Assembly: GCA_964016885.1 (NCBI GenBank)
Contig: OZ024740.1
Span: forward strand, 391,840,001-391,904,000
DNA length: 64,000 bases
Origin: Eledone cirrhosa
Lineage: Eukaryota
Reading direction: 5' to 3'
Under the pieces are notes generated by a model. The model worked only from the letters and a program-made list of their open reading frames with translations, made no database searches and was not told the origin of the DNA. A program made the position numbers and the translations under genes. Below, in pieces: positions 20,705 through 54,865 of this stretch. The stretch's first letter is position 1. The number at the start of each line of letters is the position of its first letter.

Positions 20705-22258
20705 TAGATGATCGGCACCGCTCTCAAGGAGTACAAGGTGATGACAGGAGCAAAGATTAAACAGGAAAGGTCGGGGCACCTGCAGCTCGGAACCTGGAGA
20801 GGCAGGTCCATGCCGTTAAGCAGCGTGTCGGGCGCTGGACGAAAGAACCGGTTAAATTACTAGGGGTCTTGTTTGGTCCGGACCTCCAAATGTACAGAAG
20901 CTGGGACGAGGTGACGAGCAGTGTGGCCTCTCTCACTCAGAAATGGGCTGAGAGGAAGTTGTCCCTGAAAGGTCGGGTGGACGTGGCGAACGCGTACATC
21001 GTGTCAGTCATCTACTACCGCCTGGCCGTTGTGCCAAATTCTAAGACTCACCTGACTGCACTGGAGCGTTTGTTCCTTCGCTTTTTGTGGAAGGGACACG
21101 CTCCAGTGGTCAGGCGGTCCATCTGCTGTCAATTCCCACTAGAAGGAAAGCTGGGCATGTCGTCGCTAATGATGCCTAAACATGCGATGAGGCTACATCT
21201 CCAGATCTTCCTTAATGATAAACAGGTGCGGTCGCCGTTTGCTAGACGCGTTTTACCCCAGACCATCTACTTGTCCGAGCTGCAGTCCTGAGTCAAGCGA
21301 AGACCGAGAGGGGCGCTTGGAGACTGGAATGTCTTTAGGTGCTCACAGCCCTCGACCAATCGGGCGATGGGATCAGTGGAAACTCCACCTTGGCGTACTA
21401 TAGAGGAAAAGAACGACGACATCCTTGGGGAGACCCTGGGCGTCAATCAACTAGCCAATCTCTTCCGGAAATCTTTCGAGCCGGGGCCCATGGACAATTT
21501 CCAGAAATCCCTGGTCTGGCAGTGTTACCGAGGAGCCTTTCCAGTTCGGTATAAACTCAAAAAGCATGGAAGTGCCGTCTACCGGACCTGTCCGAGATGC
21601 GTGCAGGGCGACGAAACCATCATGCATGCACTCGTCGAATGTCCGAGCATTGCTGACTTGTGGGTTTATATTGAACACCTACTATCAGGTGTAGGACGGA
21701 TATGGTTATCAGATGTGTCCATCGTTAAGACTGCCTTGCCGTCTTCCTTTAGGGGGGAAGGGCAGGCAGTTTTTATCTGCCCGGTGGCCATGGTGAAAGA
21801 GGTTGTCTGGTGGACACGTTTGAAAGGGTTGAAGACGAGCACTTACCTCTTCGGCGAAGTCCTGATTAACTTTTTAAAATTTCATTTGAAAAGGAAAATC
21901 AGGGTAGAGAGGGAAGTGCTCCCTTTCGAACAATTTGTTGAATGATAGGTGAGCGAGGCGAGCATGGTCCGACTGAATGGGCCTGCTCTATGTATGCGCC
22001 TGTAGATTGGAGGTGAAAAACTGGGAGAGCGCACTTGCCCTAATGGTCAAGGTCACCGTGGCTTTTTGGGGGCTTTCTCCACGACTGACCATCGGAGGTC
22101 TCCCCCCTATTGGGGAATTTTCCTTTGTTTCATTTTTTGTTACATCCTTTGTTTTTATTTTATGTTTTTGTTTTATGTTTACACGCAGAAACGCCCATTT
22201 GTACCGCTCTGTGCTGTCCTTAGGTTTTGTGTCAATACTCGTGGTTAATAAAGAAAAC
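20705..22258 (+). mobile_element. 5'-truncated Tx1-clade LINE (ORF2 C-terminus and 3' UTR) ending in (ATT/ATC)n
   Basis: FGPDLQ..WAERKLSLKGR..YYRLAVVP; CCHC CPRC..ETIMHALVEC; homologous to the 28-44 kb elements; ends gtggttaataaagaaaac-attattattatc. Confidence 0.9.
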
Positions 22259-22302
22259 ATTATTATTATCATTATTATTATTATCATTATATATCATTAT
22301 TA

Positions 22303-22715
22303 AGGATTGGCAGTAACGGGAGAAGATCGGACGCCATGCTTTGCAGCATAGATTTACGCCCCTTTATAGTCTGAGTTCAATTCCCGCCGAGGTTCACTTT
22401 GCCTCTCATCCTTACGGGGTCGATAAAATAAAGTACCAGTAATGTACTGGGATAATTGCTGGCCTTGTGCCAAAAGTAGAAACAATTATTATCATTAATA
22501 TTATTAGGGCGAGTGGGTTGGCAGTATCGGTAGAAAGTCGGACGCCATGCTTTGTAGCATAGAATTATGGCCCTTTACGGTCTGAGTTGAAATACCGCCG
22601 AGGTTAACTTTGCCTTTCATCCTTACGGGGTCGATTAAATAAAGTACCAGTCCCGCACTGGGGTCGATTTAATCGACTTCCCCCTCCCTCAAAATTGCTG
22701 GCCTTGTGCCTATAT
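22303..22715 (+). mobile_element. Two tandem tRNA-derived SINE copies (~22303-22495 and ~22506-22715); an older copy follows at ~22780-22885
   Basis: A/B boxes and conserved core as in other copies. Confidence 0.9.
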
Positions 22716-27960: not shown

Positions 27961-28166
27961 GAGAGATAGACAAGTAGATAGATGGATAGATAGATCGATA
28001 GAGATAGATAGAGATAGATAGATAGAGAGATAGATAAATTTCTTTATTAGCCACAAAGGCACAAAAGAAGGGGACAAATACAAATGGGGAGTTTACATAC
28101 AGGTATATGAAGATTAGATAGAGAGATAGAGAGATAGATATATAGATAGATAGAGGGATGGATAAC

Positions 28167-28224
<58 letters not shown>

Positions 28225-28234
28225 TATAGATATA
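27961..28234. repeat. (GATA)n microsatellite containing a ~80-bp Tx1 3'-end stub (28036-28114, minus)
   Basis: Stub tttctttattagccacaaaggcacaaaagaaggggacaaatacaaatggggagtttacata matches the 3' ends of elements A-C. Confidence 0.9.
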
Positions 28235-28449
28235 TTTCTTTATTTACCATAAAGGCATACAAAGAAGGGACGAATACAAAGGGGGAGTTTACATATAATC
28301 GAGTAAAAAGGGTGTAACATGAAAATAATCGAAAATAACCTCAAAAGGGAGGGGACGTGATGGGGGTTGCACACACCCCCGAAAAAGTGTGCAATCCTTT
28401 GCCCGGGGAGCACGTGGAGAAGGTGCTCCCCTCTCCTTTACTTCTCTAC

Positions 28450-31400
28450 CTACAGGATGGTATACAGAGAAGGCCCATTTACACGAGCCATTCTCGCCAC
28501 TATCACCCACATTTCATAAAACTGCCTGTGGCCAAGCACCTCTCTCTCCATTCTTATCCTTCTTCCGAAGTGATATCGGAAGAAGTAGACCAGACTATGG
28601 CCAGAGAGGAAGTTGCCTGACCTCAGACCTTTCAATCGTGTCCACCAAACAACCTCTTTCAACATGGCTATTACGCACAGAAAAACCGCCTTTACTTCCT
28701 TTGTGAAGAGGGGAGGCGGTTTGATTGTCATCACGGACTCGGCGGTCAATTTAATCGGCGCCACCCGCGACAGCAGTCGTTCGGCGTAGCCCCACAGATC
28801 AGCCACGCCCGGACATTGCACCAATGCGTGCGCAACAGTTTCTTCGTGACGCACGCATCTAGGGCAAATCTTTTTTGAGGGATCCCTGCCCGGGCGCCCG
28901 TGTCTGTAGAGCCTCTCTCGAACGGGTAGAGCCCCCCGGTAGCACTGCCAGGCCAGTGACTTCTGGAAGTTGTCCATTGGTCCTGGGCCGAAAGTCCAAC
29001 CTAACAGGCTGGCCAGTTCGTCCTCTTCCATGTCCAGCGACTCTCCAAGGGTGTCATCGCCCCTGCTAGCCACCAGCCCTCTATAGAATGATGAGGTGGA
29101 TTCTCCACCGATGGCCTGGCCCGCTTGCCAGAGAGCCCTGAGCGCCTGAGCACACTCAGTGTGCCAGTCTCCCAGTTTTCCGGATCTTTTCTTGACCCAG
29201 GACTGTAGCTCGGTGAGCGAGACGAGTCTCGGAAAGGCCCGTTTCACGAATGGAGCCCACACCGGTTGACCAGTGAGGAATACCTGTAGGTGCCGTAGCC
29301 TTAATGCGTGCCTACGCATCATCAACCACGGCATCCCCAGCCCTCCTTTCGAAGGTTGTTTGGTAGCAGATGGATCTTCTCACCATAGGAGGGCGCTTCT
29401 TCCAAAGAAATTGGAAGAGCATGCGTTCCATGGTGGTGAGTGTTTCCTTAGGGCAAGGCACGACAGTCAGGCGGTAGTAAGTGACGGACGCTATGTAAAT
29501 GTTCGCCACCTCCGCCCGGCCTTTTAGGGACAGCTTACACTTGGCCCATTTCTGGGTTAGTGCAAACACCTTGTTCGTAACCTCGTTCCAGTTCTTTTCC
29601 ACCTGGAGGTCCGGTCCAAACCAGACCCCAAGCAACTTTACCGGGCCCTCCGTCCAGTGTCCGACGACACCGTCAGGAGGCATCGGTCTGCCTCTCCACG
29701 TTCCGAGTTGCAGCCCGATGGATTTTTCCCGGTTCAGTTTCGCTCCTGACAACCTTTCGTACTCCTCCAGTAAGGTACCGATCGCCTCGATCTCCGAGTC
29801 GGTCGATACCATTACTGTTACGTCATCAGCGTAGGCCGACACCGCTTTGCTCAATCCTGGTTCCAGGCGGATACCCTGCAACAACTCCAACTTCCTCAGT
29901 AAAGGCTCGAGAGTCAATACGTACAGAAGGGAGGAGAGAGGGCACCCCTGTCGAATGGATCGTGTGATTTCGAACGGCTTCGAAAGGTAGCCGTTCACCT
30001 TGATCCTAGAACAGATGTGGTTGCTATGTAAGGCAGTGATCCAGCCTCTGAAAACAGGACCGAACTCAGCCGCCGCTAGCACCGCATCCAGGTAACCATG
30101 GTCGACCCTATCGAAGGCCTTAGACTGATCCAAGTTGATCAGGGCCCCACCGAAGCCGGGTTTGTTGCCAACCCTCTCTATGATGTATCGCATGAGGTGG
30201 AGGTTATCGTGAATGGACCTGGATGGGATAGCACATGTCTGCGCATCTCCCACCAGGCCACCCACGACAAGCGCCAACCTCTTTGCTAACACCTTGGCCA
30301 AAATCTTTAACTCTGTGTTTAGCAGGGTTATGGGCCGAACATTATTTATACTATCTCCCTTGTTCTCGTCCTTCCTCACCAGCGTGACTACGCCCTTGGC
30401 TACAGAACAAGGAATTCTCCCGTTATGCTGCCAATTGCAGTAGACTGCTTCGAGGAGTTCGGAGAAGAAGACCGGCATTGCTAAATAAAGTTCGTAAGGT
30501 ATACCATCGAGACCTGGAGATTTGCGTCTGCTGCATTGGCTCAGCGCATCTCCGATCTCATCAGCCGAGATTGGTCCCTCGCAGGACTCTGCCTCTTCGC
30601 TCGAGAGACGCGGCAGGCCGTTGAGGTATGGACCGAAATCCACGTCCCCGCCCGGACCCTCGCCTCCCCCGAACAATCGGGCAAAGTGCCTTTGAAAGGC
30701 CTCGCACATCTGCTTAGGCTCCCGAATCACCCGTCCATCTTCGTCTTGCAACGACCGGATGGTGGATCGATTTCCACTCTTAGCTTCTGTCACGCGGGCC
30801 CAGCCCACGGCTTTGGCCCCCTCATTACCTAGAGCACGTATTTTACTTCGAATGACGCAGCCTTCGGCTTTGCATCGAAAAACTGGTTCAAGGCCGTCCT
30901 CGATGCCAGCACTCTGGCCACATCTTCGCTCTTGATTGCCTCTTCTAATTTACCTGTTAATTCTTTCTCGTTTCTATTCCTATAGGCAGCTAACATCTTG
31001 CTATAACTTATTGATTCTGTTCTAACCTCTCTTTTGAGAGATGCCCACAATCGGTTGTTGACGATTGCACCCGTCAACCTCTCCTTAACTAATCTGCTAA
31101 TCCGGTTTCTGTAAGTCTCTTTTGCCGGTAAAGACAAATTAAGTTTCTAGTAACCGGGACCCTGTTTATGTGTTTTCTCGAGATTGACTACGCAGGTCAC
31201 TAATTTGTGATCCGTGTAGCCAACCGTGCGCATTTCTGGACAGCTTAATATGTCCCTATCCTTACTTCTAACTAAGAATCTATCTAAGTACGATCTAGAT
31301 TGACCACTGTGATTTCTCCAAGTCCAGGTAGGCACAGTTGGAAAATTTAGTCGATATCTATCGACCAAGTTAAAACGGTCGAGTAACCCCTTGAGGATGT

Positions 31401-31887
31401 TACACCCCCCTCTATTAGGACATGCTCCTGCATAGTCCCAACGTGCATCTAGGATGTCATTCCAATCCCCCGCTAGAAGCAGGGAACGCGACGTTCCCAG
31501 AAAAGTCTCCAAACGCTGGAAGAAGTCGGGCCGTTCAGCTCAGAAAGGGGAGTAGACGATGACCAGTCTCAAGGCCGCACCTTCACTACTGCCAACGTCT
31601 AGCACCAACAAACGACCCTCCGGGTCCGAGTGCACAACCTGTACGGCAAGACCCAGGTGTTTTTGCAGCAGTACGACAACCCCACCCCCACCTCTAGGTT
31701 GACAGAGAGATGCATGCACCTCAAAGTCATCGAAGGTGGGGGCCAGCTGCCGCACGACGCTGATTCGAGTCTCACAGATAACCATTACATTTATACTACA
31801 TGACCTGAGGTCATTTAGAAGCTTTGCTTGCTTCCAAGTTGAGCCCAGGCCACGTGCATTCAAACATCCTACTCGTAACACATCCAT
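28450..31887 (-). pseudogene. Copy A ORF2 (APE endonuclease-RT-CCHC), broken into 5 pieces
   Basis: ORFs 31540-31887, 31147-31512, 30829-31137, 29312-30808 and 28450-29334 are colinear with copy C ORF2. Confidence 0.93.
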
Positions 31888-33609
31888 GTGGGCGGCAGAG
31901 CCAAAGGAGAGTGTAGAGACCTACCTTTCCGCTCCCGGGGTTCGGGTTGCACGACTTCCATGGGGTCGGGGGTGTTGGGTGAAGGGGTGTCTTGTGGTGG
32001 TGTGGGGTCGTCAGTGTGTGGTGGGGTTGGGGTGTTTGGAGTTGTGTTGGGGAGGGGAAGGGGAGGGGGAAAGCTTTTTAGTAGGACGCGGTTTATGGGT
32101 TTGACAGAGGGTGGTCCTACGTCCTCCTTAAAATCCTTTTTTAGTTTTTGGTAGAGGTTCATTGGGATCTTTATTAATTTTAAATGTGGGTAGTTTTCTG
32201 AAGAAACAAAGTTTACACCTTCGGTTTGTACCGAAGGATTATTGTATATGAGTTCATTTAATTTATTATTGTTTCTGTTGATGTAAGTATAGTGTAATGT
32301 CTTTTTTTCGGATGGTGTGAGTGTTTCGAAGAGGGGAGGGGCAGGTTTTGTTTTGTTTGTTGCTGGAGGGGTGTTTTCTGTTTTGTTGGATTGTGTTGAG
32401 ATTTGGGTGGGGGTTGTTTGGCCTTGTGTGTTTTGCACATGTTTTCTTTTTTTTCCTTTTAATCTGTCTGAAGGACTCCGTTTCTTCCTCCGAATTCGTT
32501 GGGTTATCTTCAGTGTTGGAGGGAAGAGGTATGTTTGCTGGTAATGTTTCCGTGTTGGTTTTCTTTGTGGGGGAGATGGATATCACTATGTTAGACTGTG
32601 TTGTGTGTTGTGTCTGCGGTGGTTGTGTTGTTTTATTGAGTGAGAGGTTGGGTGGGCCTGTATTTTGTTTTGGGGTAATGTGTTTTGACTGTTTGTGTTG
32701 TGGTGGTGGTGTGGTTTTACTGAGGGTCGGGTTGGGTGGGACTGAGTTTTGTTGTTTGTTTATCTGTTGTGGTGGTGGTGGTGGAGCTGGTGTTGGTAGC
32801 AGGGTTTTCTTTTTGTTGAGTTGGGGACAAGCGGCCTTCAGGTGCCCTCTGCCTGCACAGATATGGCAGGACGGCCTTCTCCCCTCCACGCTAATGTTTA
32901 TATACCCGTGGTCCTCTAATAGGATTCTGTCGGGTATTTGGGCGATGCGTTCAGGCTTCATTTGCACTACCAGCTCTATACCTGTTCCACTGAACGCATT
33001 GCCTGTGGTTTTCCCAATGGAAATCACGTTGTCATTCACTGGATCGATGAAGCCAGCTATGAGCCAGCAGTAGTCCACATCTGGCATCATTGCATCCAGC
33101 CATATGCGTTGAGTTCTTTTACCCATATAAGATGGATAAAAGGTAAACATTTTCGAACGAATCGGTGACAAAGCACATTTTTTTGCCGCCGATTCGTTCT
33201 TCATGATAATTGCTAGGCTTCCATACAGTCTGTCTTTTCTTATGAAAGTGGTTTCATTAAGTACTTCTGTGAGTACTGTTTTGATATCTGCTTGAGAAGG
33301 CTGTTCAGGATTTTTTATACTGTTGTTGATGGTCCGAAACTTGACCGTTCGGCTTTCAATGTCTTTGGTGAATTCTTGAGGCATTTTTACCGATAAAATA
33401 CCATTCTCTCCTTCACTTATGTATTGTTTGGCGTCTGTGATTCTTCGTGCCACATCTGAAATATTTTCCGGTATATAAGTCAAAGATCTCTTTGTTTTAT
33501 GTGCAAATGAAATCTTGTCGTCTGCTTTGCTTTCTGTTATGGTGTTATTTTCAAATGTTATTTTTGTGTTTGTTGTGTCTTTGTTTGTGTTATTAGTATT
33601 GTCAGGCAA
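31869..33609 (-). pseudogene. Copy A ORF1 (gag-like, CCHC knuckle, Pro/Thr/Asn-rich linker, conserved C-terminal domain)
   Basis: ORFs 32266-33609 and 31869-32438 joined by a frameshift near an A-run; homologous to copy C ORF1 (FIRKDRLYGS, FYPSYMG.RTQRI, VEGRRP.C). Confidence 0.85.
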
Positions 33610-34055
33610 TTTTTCAAATTATTTTTTTTCGTAGTTGGAATCCATGTCCAGATTTGTGTTTTCGTCATTTTTTTTCTCCGCAGATTCGTCTGTTTTTATT
33701 TTAATTTTTCCTTCCTTCTCTATGACGTTAGTTGGGAAGGAAGGGGGGGGCTAAAGCGTGCGAGCTTACAACTCTTACCGCTGTTCCCCCACCACTATTT
33801 TCGTTCGCTGCGTTTAACATTTCTGTTAGACGATTGAAATTTTTTTGCCACAAAATTTTTAAAACAGGTTTTTCACCTCTAGGAGGGGTAAAGATGAGCT
33901 GACCCACCGCCTGACAGTTCAGACGGGGGTTCAAGCTACACAATTGTATCAAAATTAAATTTGAACTCACAAAATTTCCGCAATAAATTTGAACAAAACT
34001 TCTGCGCGAAGTGAATTACATCCACACTGTAGAACAGACGACAGCTGGATTTGAT

Positions 34056-34112
<57 letters not shown>

Positions 34113-34113
<1 letters not shown>

Positions 34114-37100
34114 CTTTCTTTTTATTTGCCACCAGGGCATCAAAAAGTGGGACAAGTACAATGGGGGGAGTTTACATAAAAAGGCGTCCTCAATAAGGAG
34201 GAGGCAATAACAAGATATAAAAATAAAATAAAATATAACAAAAATAAATTTAATAACAAAATCCTCAATAGGGAGGAGGCGCCTTGGGGGGTCGCACACA
34301 CCCCCGAAAAAAAGTGTGCAACCCTTCTCATCAGGAGCACAGAGAGCTCGCTTGATCTTCATCTTCCTCCCCTATAGTCTGATGTAGAGTGAAGGCCCAT
34401 TCACACGGGCCATTCTCGCCACTTTCACCCATCTTTCATAAAAACGGCTGGGGTGCAGCACCTCTCTCTCCATCCTGATCCTTCTTCCAAAATGATATCG
34501 GAAGAAATGGACCAGTTGTTGGCCAGAGAGAAAGGTGTTTGACCTCAGTCCTTTCAGACGCGTCCACCATACAACCTCTTTCGCCATGGCTATTACGCAC
34601 AGAAACACCGCCTCTCCTTCGTTTTTGAAGAGGGGAGGCGGCTTGATCGTTACAATAGACTCGGTGGTCAACCGGATCGGTCCTCCCCTTGACAGCAGTT
34701 ATTCGACATAGCCCCACAGATCAGCAATGCCCGAGCAGTGTACCAATGCGTGTGCAACGGTTTCCTCGTCGCACACGCATCTGGGACAGATCTTTTTCGA
34801 GGGGTCCCTACCCGGGCGCCCGTGTCTGTAGAGCCTTTCTCGAACGGGCAGAGCCCCTCGGTAGCACTGCCAGGCCAGGGACCTCTGGAAGTTATCCATG
34901 GGTCCCGGGCTGAATGTCCTACCGAACAGGTTAGCCAGTTCGTCTTCCTCCATGCCTAGGGCTTCTCCTAGGGCGTCGTCGCACCTGCTAACCACCAGCC
35001 CTCTATAGACTGACGAGGTGGATTCTCCATTGACAGCCGGGTCCGCCTGCCAGAGAGCCGTGAGCGCCTGGGCACACTCGGTGTGCCAGTCACCCAGTTT
35101 TCTCGGTCTTTGCTTGACCCAGGATTGCAGCTCGGTGAGTGAGACGAGTCTGGGAAAGGCTCGCCTCACAAACGGGGCCCACACCGGTTGACCGGTGAGG
35201 AATACCTGGAGGTGTCGTAGCCTTAATGCGTGTTTACATATCATTAGCCACTCATCCCCAGCCCTCCTTTGGAAGGGTGTTGACAGCAGATGGATCTCCT
35301 CACCATAGGAGCCCGCTTCTTCCAAAGGAATTGGAAGAGTGCGCGCTCCATTTTGGCGAGCGTTTCCCTTGGGCAAGGCACAACGGTCAGGCGGTAGTAG
35401 ATGACGGACGCTATATAAGTGTTCGCCACTTCCGCCCGACCTTTCAGGGACAGTTTGCACTCGGCCCACTTCTGGGTCAGTGCAAACACCCTGTTCGTTA
35501 CCTCACCCCAGTTCTTCTCCACCTGGAGATCTGGTCCGAACCAGACCCCGAGCAACTTCACCGGGCCCTCCGTCTAGCGCCCGACGACGCCATCGGAGCG
35601 AAATCGATCTGCCCCTCCACGTGCCGAGCTGCAGCCCGATCGACTTGTCCCGGTTCAGCTTAGCCCCTGTAAACCTTTCGTACTACTCCAGTAAGGTGCC
35701 GATCGCCCCGATTTCCGATGCCGTCGACACCATTACTGTTACGTCATCGGCGTAGGCCGACACCGCTTTCCGCAATCCCGGTTACAACGGGATGTCCTGC
35801 AACAACTCCAACTTCCGCAGCAGTGGCTCGAGAGTCATTACATACAGAAGGGAGGAGAGAGGGCACCCTTGTCGGATGGACCGCGCGATTTCGAACGGCT
35901 CCGAGAGGTAGCCGTTCACCTTGACTCTAGAGCAGATGCGGGTGCTGTGCATGGCAGAAATCCAGCCCCTGAAAACGGGTCCGAAACCTGCCGCCGCTAG
36001 CACCGCATCCAGGTAACCATGGTCGACCCTATCGAACGCCTTAGATTGATCCAAGTTGATCAGGGCCCCACCAAAGCCGGGTTCGTTCCCAACCCTCTCT
36101 CTGATGTATCGCATGAGGTGGAGGCTGTCGTGGATGGACCTGGACGGGATAGCACATGTCTGCGCATCTCCCACCAGGTTGCCCACGACAAGCGCCAACC
36201 TCTCTGCTAGCACCTTGGCCAAAATCTGTAACTCTGTATTTAGCAGAGTTATGGGCCTGAAATTATTTATATCGTCCCCCTTGTTCTCGTCATTCCTCAC
36301 TAGCGTGACTACGCCCTTGGTCACAGCACAGGGAATTCTCCCGTTCTGTTGCCAGTTGCAGTAGACCACCTCGAGGAGATCGGGGAACAAGTCCGGCATA
36401 GCTAGATATAGTTCGTATGGAAGACCGTCGAGACCCGGGGATTTGCGTTTGCCGCATTGGCTCAGCACACCCTCTATCTCAGCGGCTGAAATCGGCTCCT
36501 CGCAGGACTTCGCCTCCCTGTCCGAGAGACGCGGCAGGCCGTCGAGGTATGGACCGAAGTCCACTACCCAACCGGCTCCCCGCCTCTTCCGAACAATCTG
36601 GCAAAGTGCTTTTGAAAAGCCTCGCACATCTGCTTAGGCTCAATGATCACCCGTCCATCCTGATCTCGCAAAGACCGGATAGTGGATCTACTCCCTCTTT
36701 TGGCTTCTGTCACGCGGGCCCAGCTAACAGCTTTGGTCCCCTCGTTTCCCAGAGCACGTATTTTTCTTCGGACGATGCAGCCTTCGTGTTTTGCGTCGAA
36801 GAACTGGCCCAGGGCCGTTCTCGATGCTAGCACTCTGGCCACGTCGCCGCTTCTAATTGCCTCTTCTACACTATCTACCAACTCCCTTTTCTTCCTATTT
36901 CTATTTGAGACTAACTCCTTACTAAATTATATAGAGACAACTCTAATCTCTCTTTGAGAGATCCCCCACCACCTGCTGTTGACGATGGCGCCCGTCAACC
37001 GCTCCTTAACTAAAGTGCTAATCCGGTCCCTGTAAGCCTTACTTGCCGGTAAGGACAAGTTGAGCTTCCAGTAACCGGGTCCCTGTCTATGCGTTCTGTC

Positions 37101-38310
37101 AAGGTTGACCATGCAGGTCACTAACTTGTGGTCTGAATAGCCAACCATGCGCATTTTTGGACAACTTAAAAATCCTTATCCTTATTTCTAACTAAGAACC
37201 TATCTAGGTACGACCTAGATGATCCGCTGCGGTTTGCCCAAGTCCAGGTTGGCGCAGTCGGAAAATCTAGTCGATATCTATCGGCCAGGTCAAATCGACC
37301 GATTAACCCTTTGAGGCTATTACACCCCTCTCTATCGAAACAGGCCCCTACGTAGTCCCAGCGTGCATCTAGGATACCATTCCAGTCCCCCACTAATAGC
37401 AAGGAGCGGGACGTGCCTAGAAATGTCTCCAGACGATGGAAGAAGCCGGCCGCATTGACCCGAAAGGGCCGTAGACGGCTACCAACCTAAACGATCCGCC
37501 TTCACCACTGCCAAGGTCCAGAACCACTAGTCGACCCTCCGGATCCAAATGTACTGTCTGTGTTGCGAGACCCAGATGTTTTTGCAGCAGAACGACAACC
37601 CCACCCCCACCTCCAGGCTGACAGAGAGATGCGTGCATCTCAAGGTCATCAAAGGTGGGAACCAGCTGTCGCACGTTGCTGATCCGGGCCTCGCAAATAA
37701 CCATCACATCTATACGTTGTGACCTGAGGGCATTTAGAAGCATTGCTTGCTTCCAAGTTGAGCCCAGGCCACGCGCATTTAGACAGCCTACTCTTAGCAG
37801 AGCCATGTTGGTGGTGAAGAGAAAAGGCACTTACCACTCTGCGTCCCGGGTATTAGGCTGCAACATTTCCATGAGGGAGATGGGTTGTTGGGTGGGGTGG
37901 TGGTTTGTGGAAGTGTAGGGGCATCAGTGTGTTGTGTGGTTGGGGTGTTTGGAGTTGTGTGGGTATTTGGGGAGGGGGTGGGGTAGTTTTTTTAGGAGGA
38001 CGTGGTTAATGGGCCCGACGCAGGGGGGGGGGGGGGGCACGTCCTCTTTAAAGTTGTTTTTTTAGTGTTTTATATGTGTCCTCTGAGGCCTTAATAATTT
38101 TGAGGTAGGGGAAATCCCCTGCCTGGGTGAAGTTAGGCCCTTGGGTTTTTATAAATTATTGTACACAATGTTTAGCAGTTTTTTATTTATTGTGTTTATG
38201 TATGTGTATGCATGTTTTTGTTTTTGTGTGGTGTTTTTTGTTTGCTGTTGATTTGTGCTCTTTTGTGTTGGTGTCAGTGTTATGTTTTGGGGAGGGTTGT
38301 TTTCATTTGT
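34113..38310 (-). mobile_element. Tx1-clade retrotransposon copy B, 5'-truncated within ORF1, multiply frameshifted
   Basis: ORF2 fragments 34372-37830 colinear with A and C; ORF1 tail HAYTYINTINKKL; (GATA)n at both junctions. Confidence 0.93.
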
Positions 38311-38555
38311 GATAGATAGATATATTTCTTTATTTGCCACTAGGACACAAAAGGAAGGGACAAATACACAGGGGGGAGTTTACATAAATGCGTGTAAAGA
38401 AAAAATTAATAACAATAAGAATAACATAATAATAAAAAGTCCTCAAAAGGGAGGGGGCGTGTTGGGGATTGCACATACCCCCGAAAAGTGTGCAACCCTT
38501 TTCCCTGGGGAAGCCCAGAGAGGAGGCGCTCCCCCTTTCCTCTTCACTTCTTCAC

Positions 38556-41500
38556 CTACAGAACAATGTAGAGAGAAGGCCCATTTACACGAGCCATTCT
38601 CGCCACTTTCACCCACCTTTCATAAAACTGTCTGGGGCCAAGCACTTCTTTCTCCATCCTGATCCTTCTTCCGAAGTGGTATCGGAAGAAGTAAACCAGG
38701 TGTTGGCCGGAGAGAAAGTCACCCGACCTCAGACCTTTCAGGTGCGTCCACCACACAACCTCTTTCATCATGGCTATTACGCACAGAAAGACCGCCTCTG
38801 CTTCATTTCTGAAGGGAGGAGGCGGCTTGATGTTCACCACGGACTCGGCGGCCAATCAAATCGGCGCCACACGCGATAGCAGTCGTTCGACGTAGCCCCA
38901 CAGATCGGCAACGCCCGGGCAGTGTACCAGTGCGTGCGCAACCATTTCCTCGTCGTGCACGCATCTGGGACAGATCTTTTTCGCGGGATCCCTGCCCGGG
39001 CGCCCGTGTCTGTAGAGATTTTCTCGAACGGACAGAGCCCCCCGGTAGCACTGCCAGGCCAGGGACCTCTGGAAGTTGTCCATGGGTCCCGGGCCAAAAG
39101 TTCTACCGAACAGGCTGGCCAGTTGGTCCTCCTCCATGCCTAGCGACTCTCCAAGGGTGTCGTCGCCCCTGCTAGCCACCAGCCCTCTATAGAATGTCGA
39201 GGTGGATTCTCCACTGATAGTCGGGTCCGCTTGCCAGAGAGCCGTGAGCGCCTGGGCACACCCGGTGTGCCAGTTGCCCAGTTTTCTCGGTCTTTGCTTC
39301 ACCCAGGATTGCAGTTCGGTGAGCGAGACGAGCTGTGGGAAGGCTCGCCTCACAAATGGGGCCCACACCGGCTGACCGGTGAGGAATACCTGTAGATGCC
39401 GTAGCCTCAATGCGTGCCTACGCATCAACAGCCACGGCATACCCAGCCCTCCTTTCGAAGGGTGCTGGCAGCAGATGGATCTCCTCCCCATGGGAGGCCG
39501 CTCCATGATGGTGAGCGTTTCCTTAGGGCAAGGTACGACGGTCAGGCGGTAGTAGATGACGGACGCTATGTAAGCGTTCGCCATCTCCTCCCGACCTTTC
39601 AGTGATAGTTTGCACTTTCCCCACTTCTGGGTCAGCGCAAACACCCTGCTCGTCACATCGCCCCAATTCTTCTCCACCTGGAGGTCCGGTCCGAACCAGA
39701 CCCCGAGCAGCTTCACCGGGCCCTCCGTTCACCGTCCGACGACAACGTCTAACGGCATCGGTTTGCCCCTCCACGTTCCGAGTTGCAAACCGACTGACTT
39801 GTCCCGGTTCAGCCTAGCCCCCGTCAGCCTTTCGTATTCCTCCAGTAGGGTGGCGATCGCCCCGATTTCCGAGGCGTCCGCCACCATTACTGTTACGTCG
39901 TCGGCATAGGCCGAGACCGCTTTGGGCAATCCCGGTTCCAGAGGTATGCCCCGCAGCAACTCCAACTTCCGCAGCAGGGGCTCAAGAGCCAATACATACA
40001 GAAGGGAGGAGACGGGGCACCCCTGCCTGATGGACCGGGTGATTTGAAACGGCTCCGAGAGGTAGCCGTTTACTTTAACCCTAGAGCAGACGTTGCCACT
40101 GTGCATGGCAGAAATCCAGCCCCTGAAAACGGGTTCGAAGCCCGCCGCCGCTAGCACCGCATCCAGGTAACCATGGTCGACCCTATCGAACGCCTTAGAT
40201 TGATCCAAGTTGATCAGGGCCCCACCAAAGCCGGGTTCGTTCCCAACCATCCCTACGATGTATCGCATGAGGTGGAGGTTGTCGTGAATGGACCTGGACG
40301 GGATAGCGCATGTCTGCGCGTCTCCCACCAAGCCACCCACCACAAGCGCCAACCTCTTCGCTAACACCTTGGCCAAAATCTTTAACTCTGCATTCAGCAG
40401 AGTTATGGGCCTAAAGTTACTTAAGTCGTCCCCCTTGCTCTCGTCCTTCCTCACTAGCGTGACTACGCCCTTGGTCACAGAACAGGGAATTCTCCCGTTC
40501 TGTTGCCAGTTGCAATAGACAGCCTCGGGGAGTTCGGAGAACAAGACCGGCATAGCTAAATAAAGTTCGTATGGTAGACCATCGAGACCCGGAGATTTGC
40601 GTCTGCTGCATTGGCTGAGCGCTTCCCCGATTTCAGTGGCTGTGATTGGCCTTTCGCAGCACTCCGCTTCGCCGCTCAAAAGACGCGGTAGACCGTCGAG
40701 GTATGGACCGAAGTCCACATCCCCGTCCGGCCCCCCGCCCCCTCCGAACAGTCGAACAAAGTGCCTTTGAAAGGCCTCGCACATCCGCTCAGGTTCAAGG
40801 ATCACCCGTCCATCCTGGTCTCGCAAAGACCGAATGGTGGATTTAATCCCACTCTTGGCTTCTGTCACGCGGGCCCAGCTAACAGCTTTGGTCCCCTCGT
40901 TTCCTAAAGCACGTATTTTACTTCGGACAACGTAGCCTTCGTGCTTCGCGTCAAAGAACTGGCTCAACGCCGTTCGCGACGCTAACACTCTGGCCACGTC
41001 TCCGCTCCTAATCGCCTCTTCTAGTTTATCTGTCAACTCCCTTTCCCTCCTATTTCTATTCGCCGCTAGTTCCTTACTGTAACCTATCGAACTTACTCTA
41101 ATCTCTCTCTTTAGAGATACCCACCACCTGCTGTTGACGATCGCTCCCGTCAACCGCATCTTAACTAAGCTACTAATCCGGTTCCTGTAAGCTTCCTTTG
41201 CCGGCAGGGACAAGTTCATCTTCCAGTAACCGGGACCCTGTCTATGCGTTCTATCAAGGTTGACCACGCAGGTCACTAATTTGTGATCTGAATAGCCAAC
41301 CATGAGCAATTCTGGACAACTAAATACGTCCCTATCCTTACTCCTAACCAAAAACCTATCTAGGTACGATCTAGATTGACCACTGCGGTTTGCCCAAGTC
41401 CAGGTTGGCACAGTTGGAAAATCTAGTCGAAATCTATCGACCAGGTCGAATCGATCGAGTAACCCCTTGAGGCTGCTACACCCCCCTCTATCGGGACATG

Positions 41501-41957
41501 CCCCTGCATAGTCCCAACGCGCATCTAGGATTCCATTCCAGTCCCTCACTAAAAGCAGGGAACGCGACGTTTCTAGAAAAGTCTCCAGACGCTGGAAGAA
41601 GTCGGCTCTTTCAGGCCCGAAGGGGGCATAAAGACCGACCAGTCTGAAAGCCCCACCTTCACCGCCTCCGACGTCCAGCACCAGTAATCGACCCCCCCCC
41701 GGGTCCGAGTGAACAATCTGTACGTCGAGAGCCAGACGTTTATCCAGCAGTACGGCAACCCCACCCCCACCTCCGGGTTGACAGAGAGATGCGTGCATCT
41801 CAAAGTCATCGAAGGCGGGAGCCAGCTGTCGCACGCTGCTGATCCGACTCTCGCAAACAACCATCACATCTATACTTCGTGACCTGAGGTCACGTAGAAG
41901 CTTTGCTTGCTTCCAAGCTGAGCCCAGGCCACGCGCATTCAAGCAACCAACTCTCAA
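38556..41957 (-). pseudogene. Copy C ORF2 (APE-RT-CCHC)
   Basis: ORFs 39729-41957, 38856-39716 and 38556-38855; YADD, QGCPVS, CPRC..HALVHC. Confidence 0.93.
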
Positions 41958-44020
41958 TTGATGTGTATTGGTGTTGAAAGTGAAGAAAAAAACCTCTCCG
42001 TGTCCCGGAGTCCTGGTTGCGTAATTTCCATGGGGTCGGGTGTGTTTGGTGGAGGGATGTTTTGTGGTGGTGTGGGGGTATCCGAGTGTGGTGGGTTGGG
42101 GTATTTGGAGTTGTGTCAGGGAGAGGGGAGGTTATGGGGAAATCTTTCAAGAGGACGCGATTTAACGGTTTTAAACAGGGGGGGGGGGGGCTCACGTCCT
42201 GTTTAAATTGTTCTTTTAAGGAACGATAAAGGTCCAGAGGGACCTTTATCATTTTTAAATGAGTGAAGTTCTCTGTTGAGATAAAGTTTGGCCCTTCGGT
42301 CTGCACCAAAGGGCTATTGTTTATTAATTTAAACAGTTTTTTGTTTTCTTTATTTATATATGTGTATTGTAAAGTCTTTTTTTGTGATGCTGTCAATGTT
42401 TTGAAGAGGGGAGGCGCAGATTTATTTTTGTTTGTCGAGGGTGGGGTGTTTTTTATTGGAGTTGGTGTTTGTGTGTGGATTATTTGTTGTTGTGGTGTGC
42501 TGGGTGTGTGCTTTCGTTTTTTCCTTTTAACTTGTCTGAAGGCTTCTCCTCCTTCTTCTTCAGAAGTTGGGGGAAACTCTTCAGCGCGAGGTGGGAGGGA
42601 CGTGGTGTCTGGTTGTTTTTTTTGCGGGAGGGGTAGAATTGTTGCTGTTTTTTTTATTATTTGTTTGGAATGTGTTTTGTGGTGGTGGTGGTGATGTTTG
42701 TGTCGTGCTTGTGGTTGGTGATGGTGGTGGTGATGTTTGTGTTGTGCTTGTGGTTGGTGATGGTGGTGGTGATTTTTGTGTCGTGCTTGTGTTTGGTGCT
42801 GGTGGTGGTGATGTTTGTGTTGTGGTTGTGGTTGGTGGTGTCTGTATTTTGTTTGCTGTGCGTGTTGGTGGTGTTAGTGTATTTTTGGAGGTGGGTGGTG
42901 TTGGTGTACTGTTTGTGGTGGGTGTGGGCAATAGTCCTTTTTGGGGGATACGATTCGGGCAGTTAGCCTTAACGTGTTCCCTTTCCATGCATGAATAGCA
43001 TGCTGGTCTTCTCCCCTCTACAATTATATATATTGGGGTGAGGTCATCCAGCCAGATGCGATCCGGGATTTGCGCTATTCTTTCGGGCCTCATTTGGACT
43101 AGTAGGTCGAGGCCCATTCCCAGGAACGCATCTCCAGATGCCTTCCCCATTGACAGCACTGTGTCCTCGCCCATGTCTATGAAGCCAGCAATAGCCCACC
43201 AGAAGTCCATTGTGGGCAGCATTGTCTGCATTTTGATTCTCTGAGTTCTTCTACCCATGTAGGAGGGATAGAAACTGTATGCTGTTGATGTGAGTGGGCT
43301 TAGGGAAAGTCTCTGTGCTGTTTCTTTATCTTTTGTTAAAACACAAATGCTGCCATAGAGTCGGTCCTTTCGTATAAAGAGAATATTCTTCATATGGTCT
43401 TTTAGGACCAACTCTATCTCCGTTTGGGTGGGCTGTGCTGGCTTCCTTGTGTTGTTTAGGACTGTTCTAAACAGAACAGTGTTTTCTTGTCTCGTTTTCT
43501 TGAATTCTGGTGGGGAATTAATGGAAAACATTCCGTTCTCCCCCAAGACTATGTGCTTTTTTGCTTCTGCCAGTTTCTCTCTGGCGGCAGTTAAGTCAAT
43601 AGGTGTATATGTGATTGATTTTTTTGTTGTCTGGGCGAAAGTTGTTTTTGTTGTGTTTGTGTTATTTATGTTGGTGTATTCGTTCACATTTTTTCCCCTT
43701 TGTAGTTAGACTCCATTTTTTCAAAATCTTCACTTATATTTTCATTATCCGAGAAACTTGTAGTCACAGCTACTACTTCTCTTTCCCCTTTGCTGGTGGG
43801 CGTGGCGCCGTGAAAAGTCGAAACAGCATCCATTAATTTTGGCAATTTCTCCGAGTTAATTTTTTTCACATTTTTTTCATTAGGGTTAGGTTCCATTTTT
43901 TCAATGTTTCTAATAATCATTATTCTTTCAGTAGGGTGGCTTGTTGCCTCAGCTACCCGCTCTCCTTCAGTTTGTTTAGTGGGCGTGTCATCGTTACCTG
44001 TGGTAATGGCTTCCATGACC
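41890..44020 (-). pseudogene. Copy C ORF1
   Basis: ORFs 43684-44115, 42581-43687 and 41890-42396; zinc knuckle; 39-bp tandem repeat encoding TTQTSPPPSPTTS. Confidence 0.85.
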
Positions 44021-45582
44021 ACTAGCGTAGAGACAATTGCAAGATTTTTAGGATGAAAAATTTCACCCCAAAAGGGGTGAAATAAATTACCCCTAATGTC
44101 CGAAGACCCAGGCAAGGGGGTTAATTAACACAATAACGCAAGAATACAGACAAACACTTACTGTTAACACGTAATATCTCCAATATTCGCGGAGCCGGTG
44201 TGAAGAACGTCTATGCCATCCGGAGATAGACAGATAGATAGATAGATATGCAGGAAAGAAGATGGCATCAGATTTCCTTTAATCTCTATCCATTACTCAC
44301 AGGCTCTATTCTTCTCTTTCACTTTATTTTTTGTCTCATTTATTTTCCTACTTGCATTTACTTCTCTTTGTACCAGTTTATTTCTATTTACTGATTTAGA
44401 TGCATCTTCATTACTTTCCTGATCTACTTCCGCTTATTTATTTCCCCACACCGCTTGCCTTCTTTCTCTTTTCCGTGTCTCTCCCATTTTGGCTATGTTA
44501 CTGTCATTGTAACTATATCCCTCCGTTCCCCCTCTCTCTCCCCTCTCTATCTCTCTCCCTCTCTCCCCAAAGACACATTCCCTTGGTTTCTTTTCTGATA
44601 CACCCTGTTTCCCCTTATATTCTCTTTCTCACATTGGCTTTCTTTCTAAACCTCACTTGATATTTTCCTCTTCCACATCACTCTACCTTTTCTCAATCTA
44701 CCTGCCTATCTATACTCTTCTATTCACTTTGATAACTTCCTGTCCCTTTCTCTCCTTCTAATATTCTCACTTCTCAATTCTCTTTCGCCTATCCTCGTCT
44801 TTCTCTATAGAATCTCTCACACTCTATCCCTTTTTGCCCCCCTCTCTCTCCATCTATTCCCCCTCTCTCTCTCTCTCTTTAGATCTTCGGCTCTATCTTT
44901 CATCATCTTTAAGTGCTGAAACCTAACAGACCAGTATCAAACGTATTGATATCGTAAGGTGCAAGTAAAAACACGCTTTTATTGACCTAAATACTGATTT
45001 ATTGATTCTGCAGAAATCATTTTACTGCCTATCAGTATAACCCATATTTATAATGATATGTGACACTATTAAATTTCAGATTTACATAGTATTTTATCGT
45101 TTCAAAATAGTGGAGCCATTTTCTTATAATCTTTCTCGACCATTTGACAGCTATTTCCATCAAAAACCTATTTTTAACTTCTGTAAGAAGTTTAAATCTC
45201 ATTTTGACCATTTATATTTTTACTTTTATCAAACTCAATTATACTTCGTCTTGGAGATCCCAGGATTTGAAGAGTGGTTTTTAGTAAGATTCTAAGTTAT
45301 AGATTTTTATTGGCATTACAGTAAATCAGAATTGTAATAATATTAATCTTGCATATTGACGTTATATCTTTATATAAGATACGTAATATGCATTTGTTGT
45401 AAATGCATATATATATATATATATCAAGTAAGTATGTTTTGAAACAGTGAGCAGGTTTGAAATTAGAAAGTAGAATAGCTTTCACCGTATTTTTGACTAA
45501 AGGAATTTTAGCCTGATAATGGGGTTTAGAACCCTCAGATAAATGGAAAAGATGAGTATTGACGTATATATATATATATATA

Positions 45583-47542: not shown

Positions 47543-50213
47543 ATGCTAACAAAGAGTTACCTGCCTTTATCTATGAAGAATATTCCCACCCCCTCTAAGA
47601 ATACTTATGAAAAACTATTGATTGCTAGTGTTAACTCCTTTGTAAAAAGGATTAGATGGCGTGCTTTCCACTATGATAATAATAGGAATAGTAAGGACCC
47701 CAGGAATAGAACAAATTTTAATAACTATGGCTTCAAAACTTATAAGAGCCCACCATAATTTTGAAAGTGACTTACTCTCTCTTGTCAAAAATATTAAGTA
47801 TAGGCCAAATAATAGACATAGAAATTATAATAAATTTGATAAGTTCCAGTCTAGACTTAAAAATATTGTTAAGGGTTTTAGTGCGAATAAGTCTATTCTT
47901 GTCCCGGCGGATAAGACTAAGAATCTATACTCTATGGATTACAGTGCTTATCGTGACTTTATTTATAAGGAGCTGCATAGAAATTATAAAAAGACTACGC
48001 TAGATAATTTGAACCATATCAATAGTGAGGGTCTTAAAATAGTCTCGGACCTCGGCCTTGATAAGTATACCCAGCCATATTACCCTAGAGAACCGAGGTT
48101 CACTCTTAAGGATCATAAGGTAGACTTCATTAGTAACCCCTCTGTTAGACTCATCTGTCCTTCTAAGTCCGATATAGCCATAATCAGTAAAAAAATCCTT
48201 GACCTTATTATACCAGATGTTAGGGATAAAGTTAATTTTAACCTATGGGGGAACACTAAGGAAGTTATAGATTGGTTCTCTGGGATTAATAAACTTGAAT
48301 CTAATAAGTTTATCCAGTTCGATATTGATGCCTACTACACATCGATTTCACCCATCCTGCTCAATAAAGCCTTAATGTTGGCCATGAGAGTGTCCAGCCT
48401 TACACGATCACAGGTAGATATTATACTAGCAGCCCGTAGAACTATTATTAATTTTGAGGACACATTTTGGACCCGTAAAAACACGCCCAACAATTTCGAC
48501 GTTACAATGGGTTCGAGTGATTCGGCCCAGGTAACTGATCTTGTTGGGTTGTTCCTCCTAAATGAACTATATGTTACCTTTCCGCACCTTAATGGCGGAC
48601 TATATCGTGATGATGCATTGTTTGTTATTAACTCTAGCACCAACAATGTCGAGCATAATAAGAAGAAGCTTTATAAGTTTTTTAAAAGCTATAACCTTTC
48701 GATCACGATAGATAGAAACGATAGAGCGGTCAACTTTTTAGATGTGACTTTGGACTTGGTCACTAATAGTTTTAAACCCTTCCATAAGCCTAATGAAATA
48801 CTTTCTTATGTTAGTCCCAATTCTAACCACCCCAAATCTATGATAAGCTCTATAATTAAGGGTGTATCTAATAGGATTTCCACACTCTCTAAGGACGTAG
48901 GAACATTTAATGAACATGCGGAGTACTATAATAATGCCCTAGCTAATTCCGGTTACTCTAGTAAAATACATTATAATGATAGTAACCTTAGAAAGTCTCC
49001 GCTTACTTATAATAATAATAACATAATATCACATAACATGGCCATGAATGGGAGTGGGAAGCATAATAACCGTAGAAATTACATAGGTGTATCTGAACCC
49101 ATCCATAAGTTAACCCACCGGACTCGTAATAGGGAATATAATACCTCTAGGAAACAAGTCGAACCCTCTGAGCGCTCACTCATTGGTGATGATTTTGCTA
49201 GATCTAATTCTAATAATGTTGTTTCTACTGATCCTATTATTGGCTCTAATCCTTTTGATGGGATTCCAGACGGCAGCAGATCTACTAGACGTAGAAACAG
49301 TAAGAGACTTAATGGAATTTTGGCTGATTCTAATAATGCGGTTTTAACTAATCCTTGTAATAACCCTAGTCTTAATAATGGGATATTAGATAATGGTAGA
49401 GTCGGTAAGGATAAAAATAGAAGGAGACTAAATACTTATTTTAACCCGCCATATAATCAGGAAGTATTAACTAATATCCCTAGGTCTTTCTTTTCTATCT
49501 TAGAGAAAAATTTCCCCCCTTCTCATAAGTACCATAGTATTTTTAATAAAAATGTTATTAAACTTTCATTCTCTACCACCCCTAATATTAGTTCTCATTT
49601 AGCTAGCACTAACAATAGGAAAATTAGGGATGGATACTCCTCTCTACATACTACTAGTCTGAACAGATCTGTAAATGCCTTACCACCAGAGCAGACCTTA
49701 TCTAATAGTAATCCTACGTGTAATACATCACTACTTCAGCCAACCAATAGCACCCGGAAGTGTAACTGTAGAGTGAGTGCTAACTGCCCTTTAAACGGTA
49801 ACTGCCTCTCTAAGAACATCGTCTATGCTTGCGTAGTTATAACTAATTCCTCTAATAGAACTTATATAGGCTCTACATCTAACACTTTTAAGACTAGGTT
49901 TAATTCTCATATCTCTAATTTCAAACATGTTAAGTTTAAGAATTCTACTTCTTTAGCACACTATATCTGGGATCTTAAGGGGGCTAATATACCATATAGC
50001 CTTAATTGGCGTTTAGTAGCACGCTCTAATAACCTTTCTACACATACTAAATTTTGTAATCTCTGTATCCTCGAGACACACTCTATAATTTTCTCTAGTG
50101 AATCCTTACTTAATAGAAAGTCTGAGATATTCTCTTCTTGCCCGTACGCTATTTCTAATTCTTACTTTTATTATAAACCTAAAGGTTCTAGTAGTATAAA
50201 TTGTATCCATTAG
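47543..50213 (+). pseudogene. Naiad-type Penelope-like element ORF (RT plus GIY-YIG) with one frameshift near 47755
   Basis: N-terminal SMKNIPTPS..FVKRIRWRAF; RT ADKT, QFDIDAYY, MGSSDSAQ, GLYRDD, VNFLDVTLDL; FNPPY; CNCx5CPLNGNC; IVY..TYIGST..FKTRFNSH; CNLC. Confidence 0.9.
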
Positions 50214-51778: not shown

Positions 51779-52816
<1,038 letters not shown>

Positions 52817-53649
52817 TATTTCATTTATTGATTTATTGATAATTTATCTGAGTGTCCCGAATCTTCCATATCGAAAATTTTCGGTTAATTGGTTGATTGT
52901 AGACATATTCTACGTGTGACGGTATTTTAACGATAGTTATAGCTCTGATTTATTTGAATTATAGAGCCCTCTGCCGCTCATCTCGAATTTTGTTTATTGT
53001 GAACTCGTGCGCCGATTTTTCGATACTCGATTATTCTACTGTATTTAGCTCTAGACCTAGCTATTGACCAGTTAATTTTATTGTTCATTTTTTGTCGATT
53101 CTATTAAATGATGAATAGCTCCTGTTTATTTTAACATGTCTATTGAGCACTCTTATTCGATATGTGTTATTCCACATTTTTCCGAATATTTTTTGCGGAT
53201 ATGAAGGTTATCTCCCTTGCTGAAATCCATGTGCGTATTTTTAGCCTGGGTTTTGTCTTTTCATCCGTTGGACTAAGGCTCGTTGAAGAAGTAACTCCAG
53301 TCCCCCGTTGTCTGTAAGTCTTATATTTTTATGTGAGCTGATAGAGGACGGTTTAAGGACTTACAGAAACCCAAGAAGCTAGATATACCATCTCTCTAGT
53401 GGGTCCGGGTATGCTTTTTACATTCATTTCATTTATTGATTTATTGATAATTTATCTGAGTGTCCCGAATCTTCCATATCGAAATTTTTCGGTTAATTGG
53501 TTGATTGTAGACATATTCTACGTGTGACGGTATTTTAACGATAGTTATAGCTCTGATTTATTTGAATTATAGAGCCCTCTGCCGCTCATCTCGAATTTTG
53601 TTTATCGTGAACTCGTGCGCCGATTTTTCGATACTCGATTATTCTACTA
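52817..53649 (+). mobile_element. Non-coding ~610-nt unit in partial tandem (~225-bp direct repeats), embedded in (TA)n; HHR-like remnants
   Basis: ~52819-53040 nearly identical to ~53427-53648; stem tgtaagtc/gacttaca-GAAAC-cca..tgg-GUC-cggg at 53305-53409. Confidence 0.75.

Positions 53650-54863
<1,214 letters not shown>

Positions 54864-54865
<2 letters not shown>

Follow-up and report, generated by a model that had tools for sequence, protein, structure and literature searches.

Stacked L1/Tx1-type LINE insertions in a GATA microsatellite of Eledone cirrhosa: a candidate (TATC)n-homing lineage

How do several copies of one retrotransposon lineage come to lie one behind the other, in a single orientation, within the same tetranucleotide microsatellite? 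The question is raised by a locus in the genome of Eledone cirrhosa (GenBank assembly GCA_964016885.1, contig OZ024740.1, positions 391,840,001 to 391,904,000 of the forward strand). In this 64-kb stretch, here called the window, a preliminary description made from the sequence alone had noticed four minus-strand pieces of a Tx1-type long interspersed nuclear element (LINE): a short stub and three longer copies, A, B and C. All four are present, with edges within 3 bp of the positions first given (Table 1). Our reading, to which we assign a probability of roughly 0.7, is that the family of A, B and C homes to (TATC)n family-wide, by target-primed reverse transcription.

The junctions carry this reading. 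GATA repeat touches eight of the eight, including the truncated 5' end of B and both outer edges, just as had been proposed; the short GATA spacer between B and C was likewise found, although at 14 nt rather than the ~15 bp first estimated. Perfect (GATA)3+ runs number five in the window and every one is a junction array, so that GATA at the junctions cannot be put down to chance. The 53 perfect arrays beyond the locus all belong to other classes, with none of the GATA class among them, and a scan allowing one mismatch returned only three further clusters there, of 12-16 nt. The four copies share one orientation and one 3' register (AATAAA..GAAA, 2 nt, then TATC units). At this locus the same repeat lies on both sides of all four, 5'-truncated copies included, which is the pattern of microsatellite-specific Tx1 elements. 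Three of the five arrays are shared, the 3' flank of one copy being the 5' flank of the next, which leaves the two outer arrays as the only independent flanks. The AG-class (five) and AAG-class (one) arrays of the window hold no copy, which is not the pattern of a (TC)n or (TTC)n target. GC content is 49-53% within the locus and 32.5% beyond it, the window being AT-rich animal DNA with many microsatellites.

Could the copies have inserted without any specificity and simply survived in a neutral, repeat-rich spot? Such passive accumulation is one proposal for Waldo elements beside CA repeats in Drosophila (PMC3812793), and the surroundings of the stack showed no recognisable host gene. We nevertheless regard it as very improbable here, given four of four copies with the same orientation and 3' register within ~300 bp of original repeat, and none of the 38 dinucleotide arrays beyond the locus holding a copy.

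Table 1. Stack copies, GATA arrays, reading frames and more distant relatives in the 64-kb window
Feature	Position	Strand	Remarks
Copy D	20710-22258	+	More distant Tx1-like remnant; sister clade in tree
Outer 3' flank of stack, degenerate GATA array	27961..28038		78 nt, ~19 units, GAGA/GGAT/GATC variants; Tandem Repeats Finder (TRF) 72% matches, unit parse
Stub, terminal 76 bp of a copy	28039..28114	-	End reads ...AATAAAGAAA
GATA array, stub/A	28115..28234		120 nt; degenerate beside stub, 14 perfect units beside A 3' end
Copy A	28235..34052	-	Decayed full-length copy, 5818 bp
ORF2 of A (APE endonuclease, reverse transcriptase, C-terminal zinc finger)	28450..31887	-	Pfam, motifs, ATG and stop
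ORF1 of A, main stop-free stretch	32269..33618	-	C-x2-C-x4-H-x4-C knuckle
GATA array, A 5' end/B 3' end	34053..34114		62 nt, 15 units, 96% matches (TRF)
Copy B	34115..38310	-	~4.2 kb, 5'-truncated within ORF1
ORF2 of B	37806-34372	-	5 stops, 5 one-base frameshifts
GATA spacer, B truncated 5' end/C 3' end	38311..38324		14 nt; about one target-site duplication in length
Copy C	38325..44223	-	Full length, 5899 bp
ORF2 of C	~41960-38556	-	2 stops, 30-bp in-frame deletion
Outer 5' flank, GATA array	44224..44249		26 nt, 6 units; no element 3' end before it
Copy E	60148-60647	-	More distant Tx1-like remnant

The stack copies belong to an L1-group (L1/Tx1-type) LINE lineage. An endonuclease, reverse transcriptase and zinc finger are joined in open reading frame 2 (ORF2) behind a separate upstream ORF1, self-blast of the copies revealed no long terminal repeats, and B and the stub are 5'-truncated, all of which are marks of the group formed by L1 and Tx1. 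Among 13 ORF pieces compared with Pfam, the ORF2 pieces of A and C matched Exo_endo_phos, RVT_1 and zf-RVT. The ORF1 pieces had no Pfam match at E 0.01; a CCHC knuckle (C-x2-C-x4-H-x4-C) can be read in ORF1 of both A and C, and the nearest Atlas clusters of ORF1 are zf-CCHC (score 0.92). Elements of the Tx1 clade have a gag-like ORF1 with a CCHC knuckle, and the architecture seen here fits that clade. None of the four copies has a poly(A) tail and their flanks are TATC, so that the poly(A) and TTTT/AA target of mammalian-type L1 elements are not what is seen. The best PDB matches are to L1 ORF2p, by sequence as well as by fold, the latter taken from a structure model of C (predicted local distance difference test score, pLDDT, 70.9, and <50 in the hairpin region 185-197) that is uninformative on specificity. 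The best named relatives are proteins of Argonauta hians (61% and 67%) and of Acanthosepion pharaonis (53%, reverse transcriptase), relatives that point to an octopod as the probable host. In quick trees, which took in only unnamed or cephalopod sequences, A, B and C form one clade (Shimodaira-Hasegawa-like approximate likelihood ratio test support 96-98), sister to P0002 of Argonauta hians. No named Tx1 reference appeared among the matches of the protein searches, Atlas or PDB.

All the stack copies are now dead. The catalytic motifs are still recognisable in A, B and C, with RDWN instead of GDWN in C, but ORF2 of A contains two stops and two one-base frameshifts, and ORF1 of C is spread over three frames. 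The endonuclease hairpin loop is nearly identical across the three copies. Its length varies by clade: it has 9 residues in A, B, C and their closest relatives, as in human L1, whereas Tx1L of Xenopus and the array-forming relatives described below have 11, the length found in 62 of 73 stored proteins with a matching loop pattern. ORF1 of C also carries a 39-bp in-frame tandem repeat (42671-42837; 4.3 copies, Thr/Ser/Pro-rich units), and A has no such tandem repeat.

The head-to-tail layout raises the possibility that one insertion was duplicated in tandem, or multiplied by the assembly, and then decayed. The similar decay of the copies would suit this: at 367 constrained sites, A has 19 private replacements and B and C have 16 each. 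However, tandem duplication predicts even divergence and a ratio of nonsynonymous to synonymous rates (dN/dS) near 1, and neither is observed. Over 1115-1118 codons, dN/dS between the copies is 0.17-0.24, and pairwise differences at codon positions 1, 2 and 3 are 11-12%, 9-10% and 23-29%. Mutual identity is 80.6-81.6% over ~4.1 kb, yet that between A and C rises from 44-48% at the 5' end through 57-63% in ORF1 to 79-90% in ORF2, and the 5' untranslated regions (UTRs) of A and C are unrelated and unalignable. Neutral decay of duplicates cannot yield the low dN/dS, the third-position bias and the unrelated 5' UTRs, and an assembly repeat would not show 81% identity. The preliminary description was therefore right to see independent insertions, and duplication of a single one is effectively refuted by dN/dS and the identity gradient. 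The copies stem from separate active subfamilies, at least three of them diverged, whose divergence under purifying selection preceded insertion. The stub is 81-86% identical to the 3' ends of A, B and C by blastn, and those of A and C are closest to it in local alignments. A, B and C are of similar age, and neither private replacements nor disablements (4 in A, 10 in B and 3 in C) give an order of arrival. An argument that B is the oldest was abandoned, the disablements of B and C differing at p 0.09.

Separate insertions may have entered a repeat that was already there or may have made it themselves. The six-unit GATA array beyond the 5' end of C cannot be a tail, because no element 3' end precedes it. 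Around A, the 12 nt preceding the copy recur, variants included, at positions 7-18 beyond it (permutation p 0.03), and the 16 nt preceding the stub recur in the same way at positions 5-20 beyond (permutation p 0.011). The joint p for variant-bearing direct repeats in two of the four copies is 0.0016, for a statistic chosen post hoc. These repeats are as expected of target-site duplications of 12-16 nt, a conclusion that is thus supported but post hoc. The spacers of 14, 62 and 120 nt, together with the degenerate array segments, point to several insertion positions in an older array. Because of the outer 5' flank, the recurring variants and the common 3' register without poly(A), a pre-existing GATA array, partly duplicated at each insertion, is favoured, and the earlier proposal of insertion into an existing repeat gains support from the first two of these.

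Several observations weigh against family-wide homing. The GATA evidence comes from one locus, chosen for its odd look, and a scan of contigs gave no further A/B/C-family copy with flanks. B and C, half of the copies, lack a variant-bearing duplication in the test applied to A and the stub, a test devised after the data had been inspected. Next to the 3' end of A and that of B lie the longest perfect GATA runs (14 and 11 units), an arrangement that tail slippage would also produce. In copies D and E, the more distant ones of the window (65-71% DNA identity), (ATT/ATC)n is confined to the 3' end, where a tail would lie. The array-forming relatives taken up below, at 44% ORF2 identity, stack without a microsatellite at their junctions, and five unrelated junction sequences occur there with closely similar endonucleases.

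The perfect runs and the one-sided trinucleotide runs of the sister-clade copies would suit an account in which slippage makes the (TATC)n tail and new copies enter the tails of older ones, with no original GATA target. Microsatellite-like tails end many LINEs (PMC6007223), and the lack of GATA arrays elsewhere in the window agrees with this. On the other side stand the outer 5' flank of C with no element end before it, the repeat variants recurring on either side of A and of the stub, a duplication that a tail would leave unexplained, and the mere 14 nt at the 3' side of C. We consider tails as the sole source of the repeat to be decidedly improbable, although the perfect runs beside A and B may have been lengthened by tail slippage. 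Since D falls in a sister clade and D and E are only 65-71% identical, their flanks are no refutation of GATA homing by the A/B/C lineage; flanks do differ within the octopod group, as these two copies illustrate.

The stacking relatives came from the same scan, which yielded 54 loci, 43 of the 44%-identical array-forming relative and 11 of more distant elements (27-36%); a (GATA)3+ run was found in none of the 54. The 43 array loci (L001-L041, L043 and L046) lie on 15 contigs of CAXXMW01, for example CAXXMW010000008.1 (22.7-88.4 kb). CAXXMW01 is titled a bacterial metagenome-assembled genome and is probably mis-binned animal DNA. The units are 6.4-6.8 kb long with mostly open ORFs, neighbours are ~99% identical, and subfamilies with swapped ORF1/5' UTR are mixed with shortened copies. 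The ORF1 type and the terminal AATAAA are in common with the stack copies. As these relatives stack without a microsatellite, stacking in the wider group needs no repeat target. The sequences after their terminal AATAAA fall into at least seven unrelated classes, and in the five classes scored, which include only loci with a matching start motif, endonuclease identity is 90-96%, and four of the five share a hairpin loop. Each junction sequence may represent a duplication (L029, L037) or belong to the 5' end of the copy that follows. For example, the 16-mer before the first copy in L029 is consistent with a target-site duplication, but could also be the element's own 5' terminus. These are satellite-like or telomere-like LINE arrays, probably of an animal, and possibly of more interest than the GATA stack. 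Rfam gave no matches in the window or in the 9 of the 43 array loci scanned, and ARAGORN found no tRNAs; an RNA-gene target of the Keno or Dewa type was rejected for this locus on these grounds.

Relatives of this kind invite the explanation that the stack is specific to its locus: new insertions would tend to fall next to existing copies of the lineage, or at a hot spot of the region, the initial one would have met GATA by chance, and family members elsewhere would have other flanks. Besides the mixed head-to-tail arrays and the unrelated junction classes with similar enzymes, the spacer between C and B agrees with this, since it measures 17 nt when counted from AATAAAG and so matches the 16-17-nt spacer of the CAXXMW01 arrays. 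Double insertion at one site is, moreover, common for many transposable elements (PMC5932611). However, the first insertion must then have struck a class of repeat that is found nowhere in the remaining 47.7 kb. The 5' ends of A, B and C are unrelated or missing, and GATA is the sole sequence common to all junctions. Two of the three inner spacers (62 and 120 nt) far exceed one duplication and are partly degenerate. Furthermore, the 99% identity of the CAXXMW01 arrays and the repetition of the same shortened unit (L037) suggest recombination, whereas the window copies are 81% identical. We therefore judge a purely local origin of the stack unlikely.

If the family does home to (TATC)n, insertion might proceed as follows. 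The APE domain would nick the GATA strand of the repeat. RNA is cleaved 10-30 nt downstream of AATAAA, and in the stack copies this motif lies only 4 nt from the element end, so that cleavage would fall further on and read-through into the flank would give the transcript a few UAUC units at its end. By pairing with the GATA strand at the nick, these units would prime reverse transcription. A second cut at a distance of ~14-18 nt would duplicate a short piece of the repeat, a few units long, with GATA remaining on either side of the insertion. Each insertion would regenerate the target in this way and later subfamilies could land beside earlier ones; with the target regenerated on both sides, four insertions would give five arrays, the number observed. 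In R1Bm, I factor and R2Ol, priming is helped by pairing of the RNA 3' end with the target (PMC6007223), and in L1/Tx1L endonuclease chimeras the hairpin loop shapes target choice (PMC1950540).

A more speculative variant, which we hold to be doubtful, is that the target is inherited through the RNA and not wired into the endonuclease. With AATAAA at the very end, the transcript would carry ~15 nt of its own downstream flank, and pairing of these with matching DNA would set the next site. A single type of enzyme could then serve for homing to (TATC)n in the stack, to (ATC)n in D and E, and to unrelated 16-17-mers in the array-forming relatives. In the latter, junction sequence is not tied to enzyme divergence, which supports the RNA-guided reading and a locus-specific stack alike.

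Homing of A, B and C to (TATC)n would have precedents. Target-sequence preference is common in the Tx1 clade, and a repeat in >20% of flanks across a family has served to define a microsatellite target (PMC4494074). Targeting of the Kibi/Koshi type, which the preliminary description mentioned, is indeed known in this clade and extends to tetranucleotide families (PMC4494074). Kibi and Koshi are teleost Tx1-clade elements with (TC)n and (TTC)n targets (PMC4494074, PMC3812793), and several crocodilian Tx1 families (Tx1-1_Crp, Tx1-2_AMi and others) target (TTCC)n or (TTTC)n (PMC4494074). The present lineage most likely works like Kibi and Koshi while being neither. It too is an APE-type LINE within a short microsatellite in a single orientation, but the target of the stack is (TATC)n and the host an octopod rather than a teleost, and the targeting may have arisen independently. 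The crocodilian families share a tetranucleotide target, but theirs are pure pyrimidine and TATC is not. Tx1L of Xenopus is likewise a two-ORF APE element, and sequence-specific nicking has been shown for its endonuclease (PMC1950540); unlike the stack copies, it inserts in the Tx1D transposon. Another Tx1 element, Tx1-1_ACar, is telomere-specific (PMC10088271).

Outside the clade, the closest likeness is to Drosophila R1 arrays and double-insertion dimers, in which a regenerated target leads to head-to-tail tandems separated by target-site duplications (PMC5932611), and the 14-nt C-B spacer matches this arrangement. R1, however, belongs to another clade and targets 28S rDNA, whereas the stack copies come from diverged subfamilies. 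Waldo and Mino (ACAY, AC), Dong (TAA) and Togen ((TG)n) are also microsatellite-targeting non-LTR elements (PMC3812793, PMC4640811), but of other clades and with other repeats. A 2013 list of such elements gives ACAY, AC, TC, TTC and TAA and does not include GATA, and the same source describes the mechanism of microsatellite targeting by APE elements as poorly understood (PMC3812793).

The novelty of GATA/TATC as a target for a Tx1-type element is provisional. No GATA-targeting Tx1 element was found in the literature searched, and many targets are recorded only in Repbase/Dfam, outside that search; passages of PMC3747384 and PMC13708176 held nothing on GATA. L1-Tx1 is listed as expanded in coleoids (PMC8967140), and O. 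vulgaris has 80 L1-Tx1 consensus families, 13 of them recently active (PMC13282606). The text covered of the latter paper names no target preference, and its supplement has no hits for GATA, microsatellite or target. The A/B/C family itself may already be catalogued, for example among the octopus L1-Tx1 families.

Taken alone, the locus amounts to four inactive copies of an element whose kind is already known. Should the homing hold genome-wide, (GATA)n would join the short list of microsatellite targets, the habit would extend to cephalopods, and octopod GATA microsatellite markers could be disrupted by multi-kb insertions. The lineage also offers a natural comparison, with close relatives that have TATC, ATC/ATT or no junction repeat and hairpin loops of 9 or 11 residues, which makes it directly testable whether the endonuclease or the RNA 3' end decides the target. 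This question bears on retrotransposon-based gene insertion tools; an RNA-inherited target, if real, would mean a naturally reprogrammable APE-type retrotransposon.

Other repeats in the window deserve brief mention. The stretches at 20710-22302 (+) and 60122-60647 (-) hold D and E, each ending in (ATT/ATC)n and followed by the same repeat, resembling a short interspersed nuclear element (SINE), in the same orientation. Behind D and E this SINE-like repeat lacks its first ~8 nt in comparison with its other copies. It is abundant and ~190 bp long, with a copy at 22304-22490 and 13 other blast matches at 71-94% to that query copy (self excluded). It sometimes occurs in tandem with (ATT)n between copies, and has no Rfam or ARAGORN match. 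Short reverse transcriptase fragments at 2450-2765 (-), 42-46% identical to P0001, represent another more distant LINE, and ~3 kb of interrupted (TA)n repeat with a GC content of ~15-20% lie at 51779-54864. Finally, an open 855-aa frame at 47646-50213 (+), with a weak C-terminal GIY-YIG match (E 0.004) and a reverse transcriptase-like core recognised by eye, is likely a young Penelope-like element.

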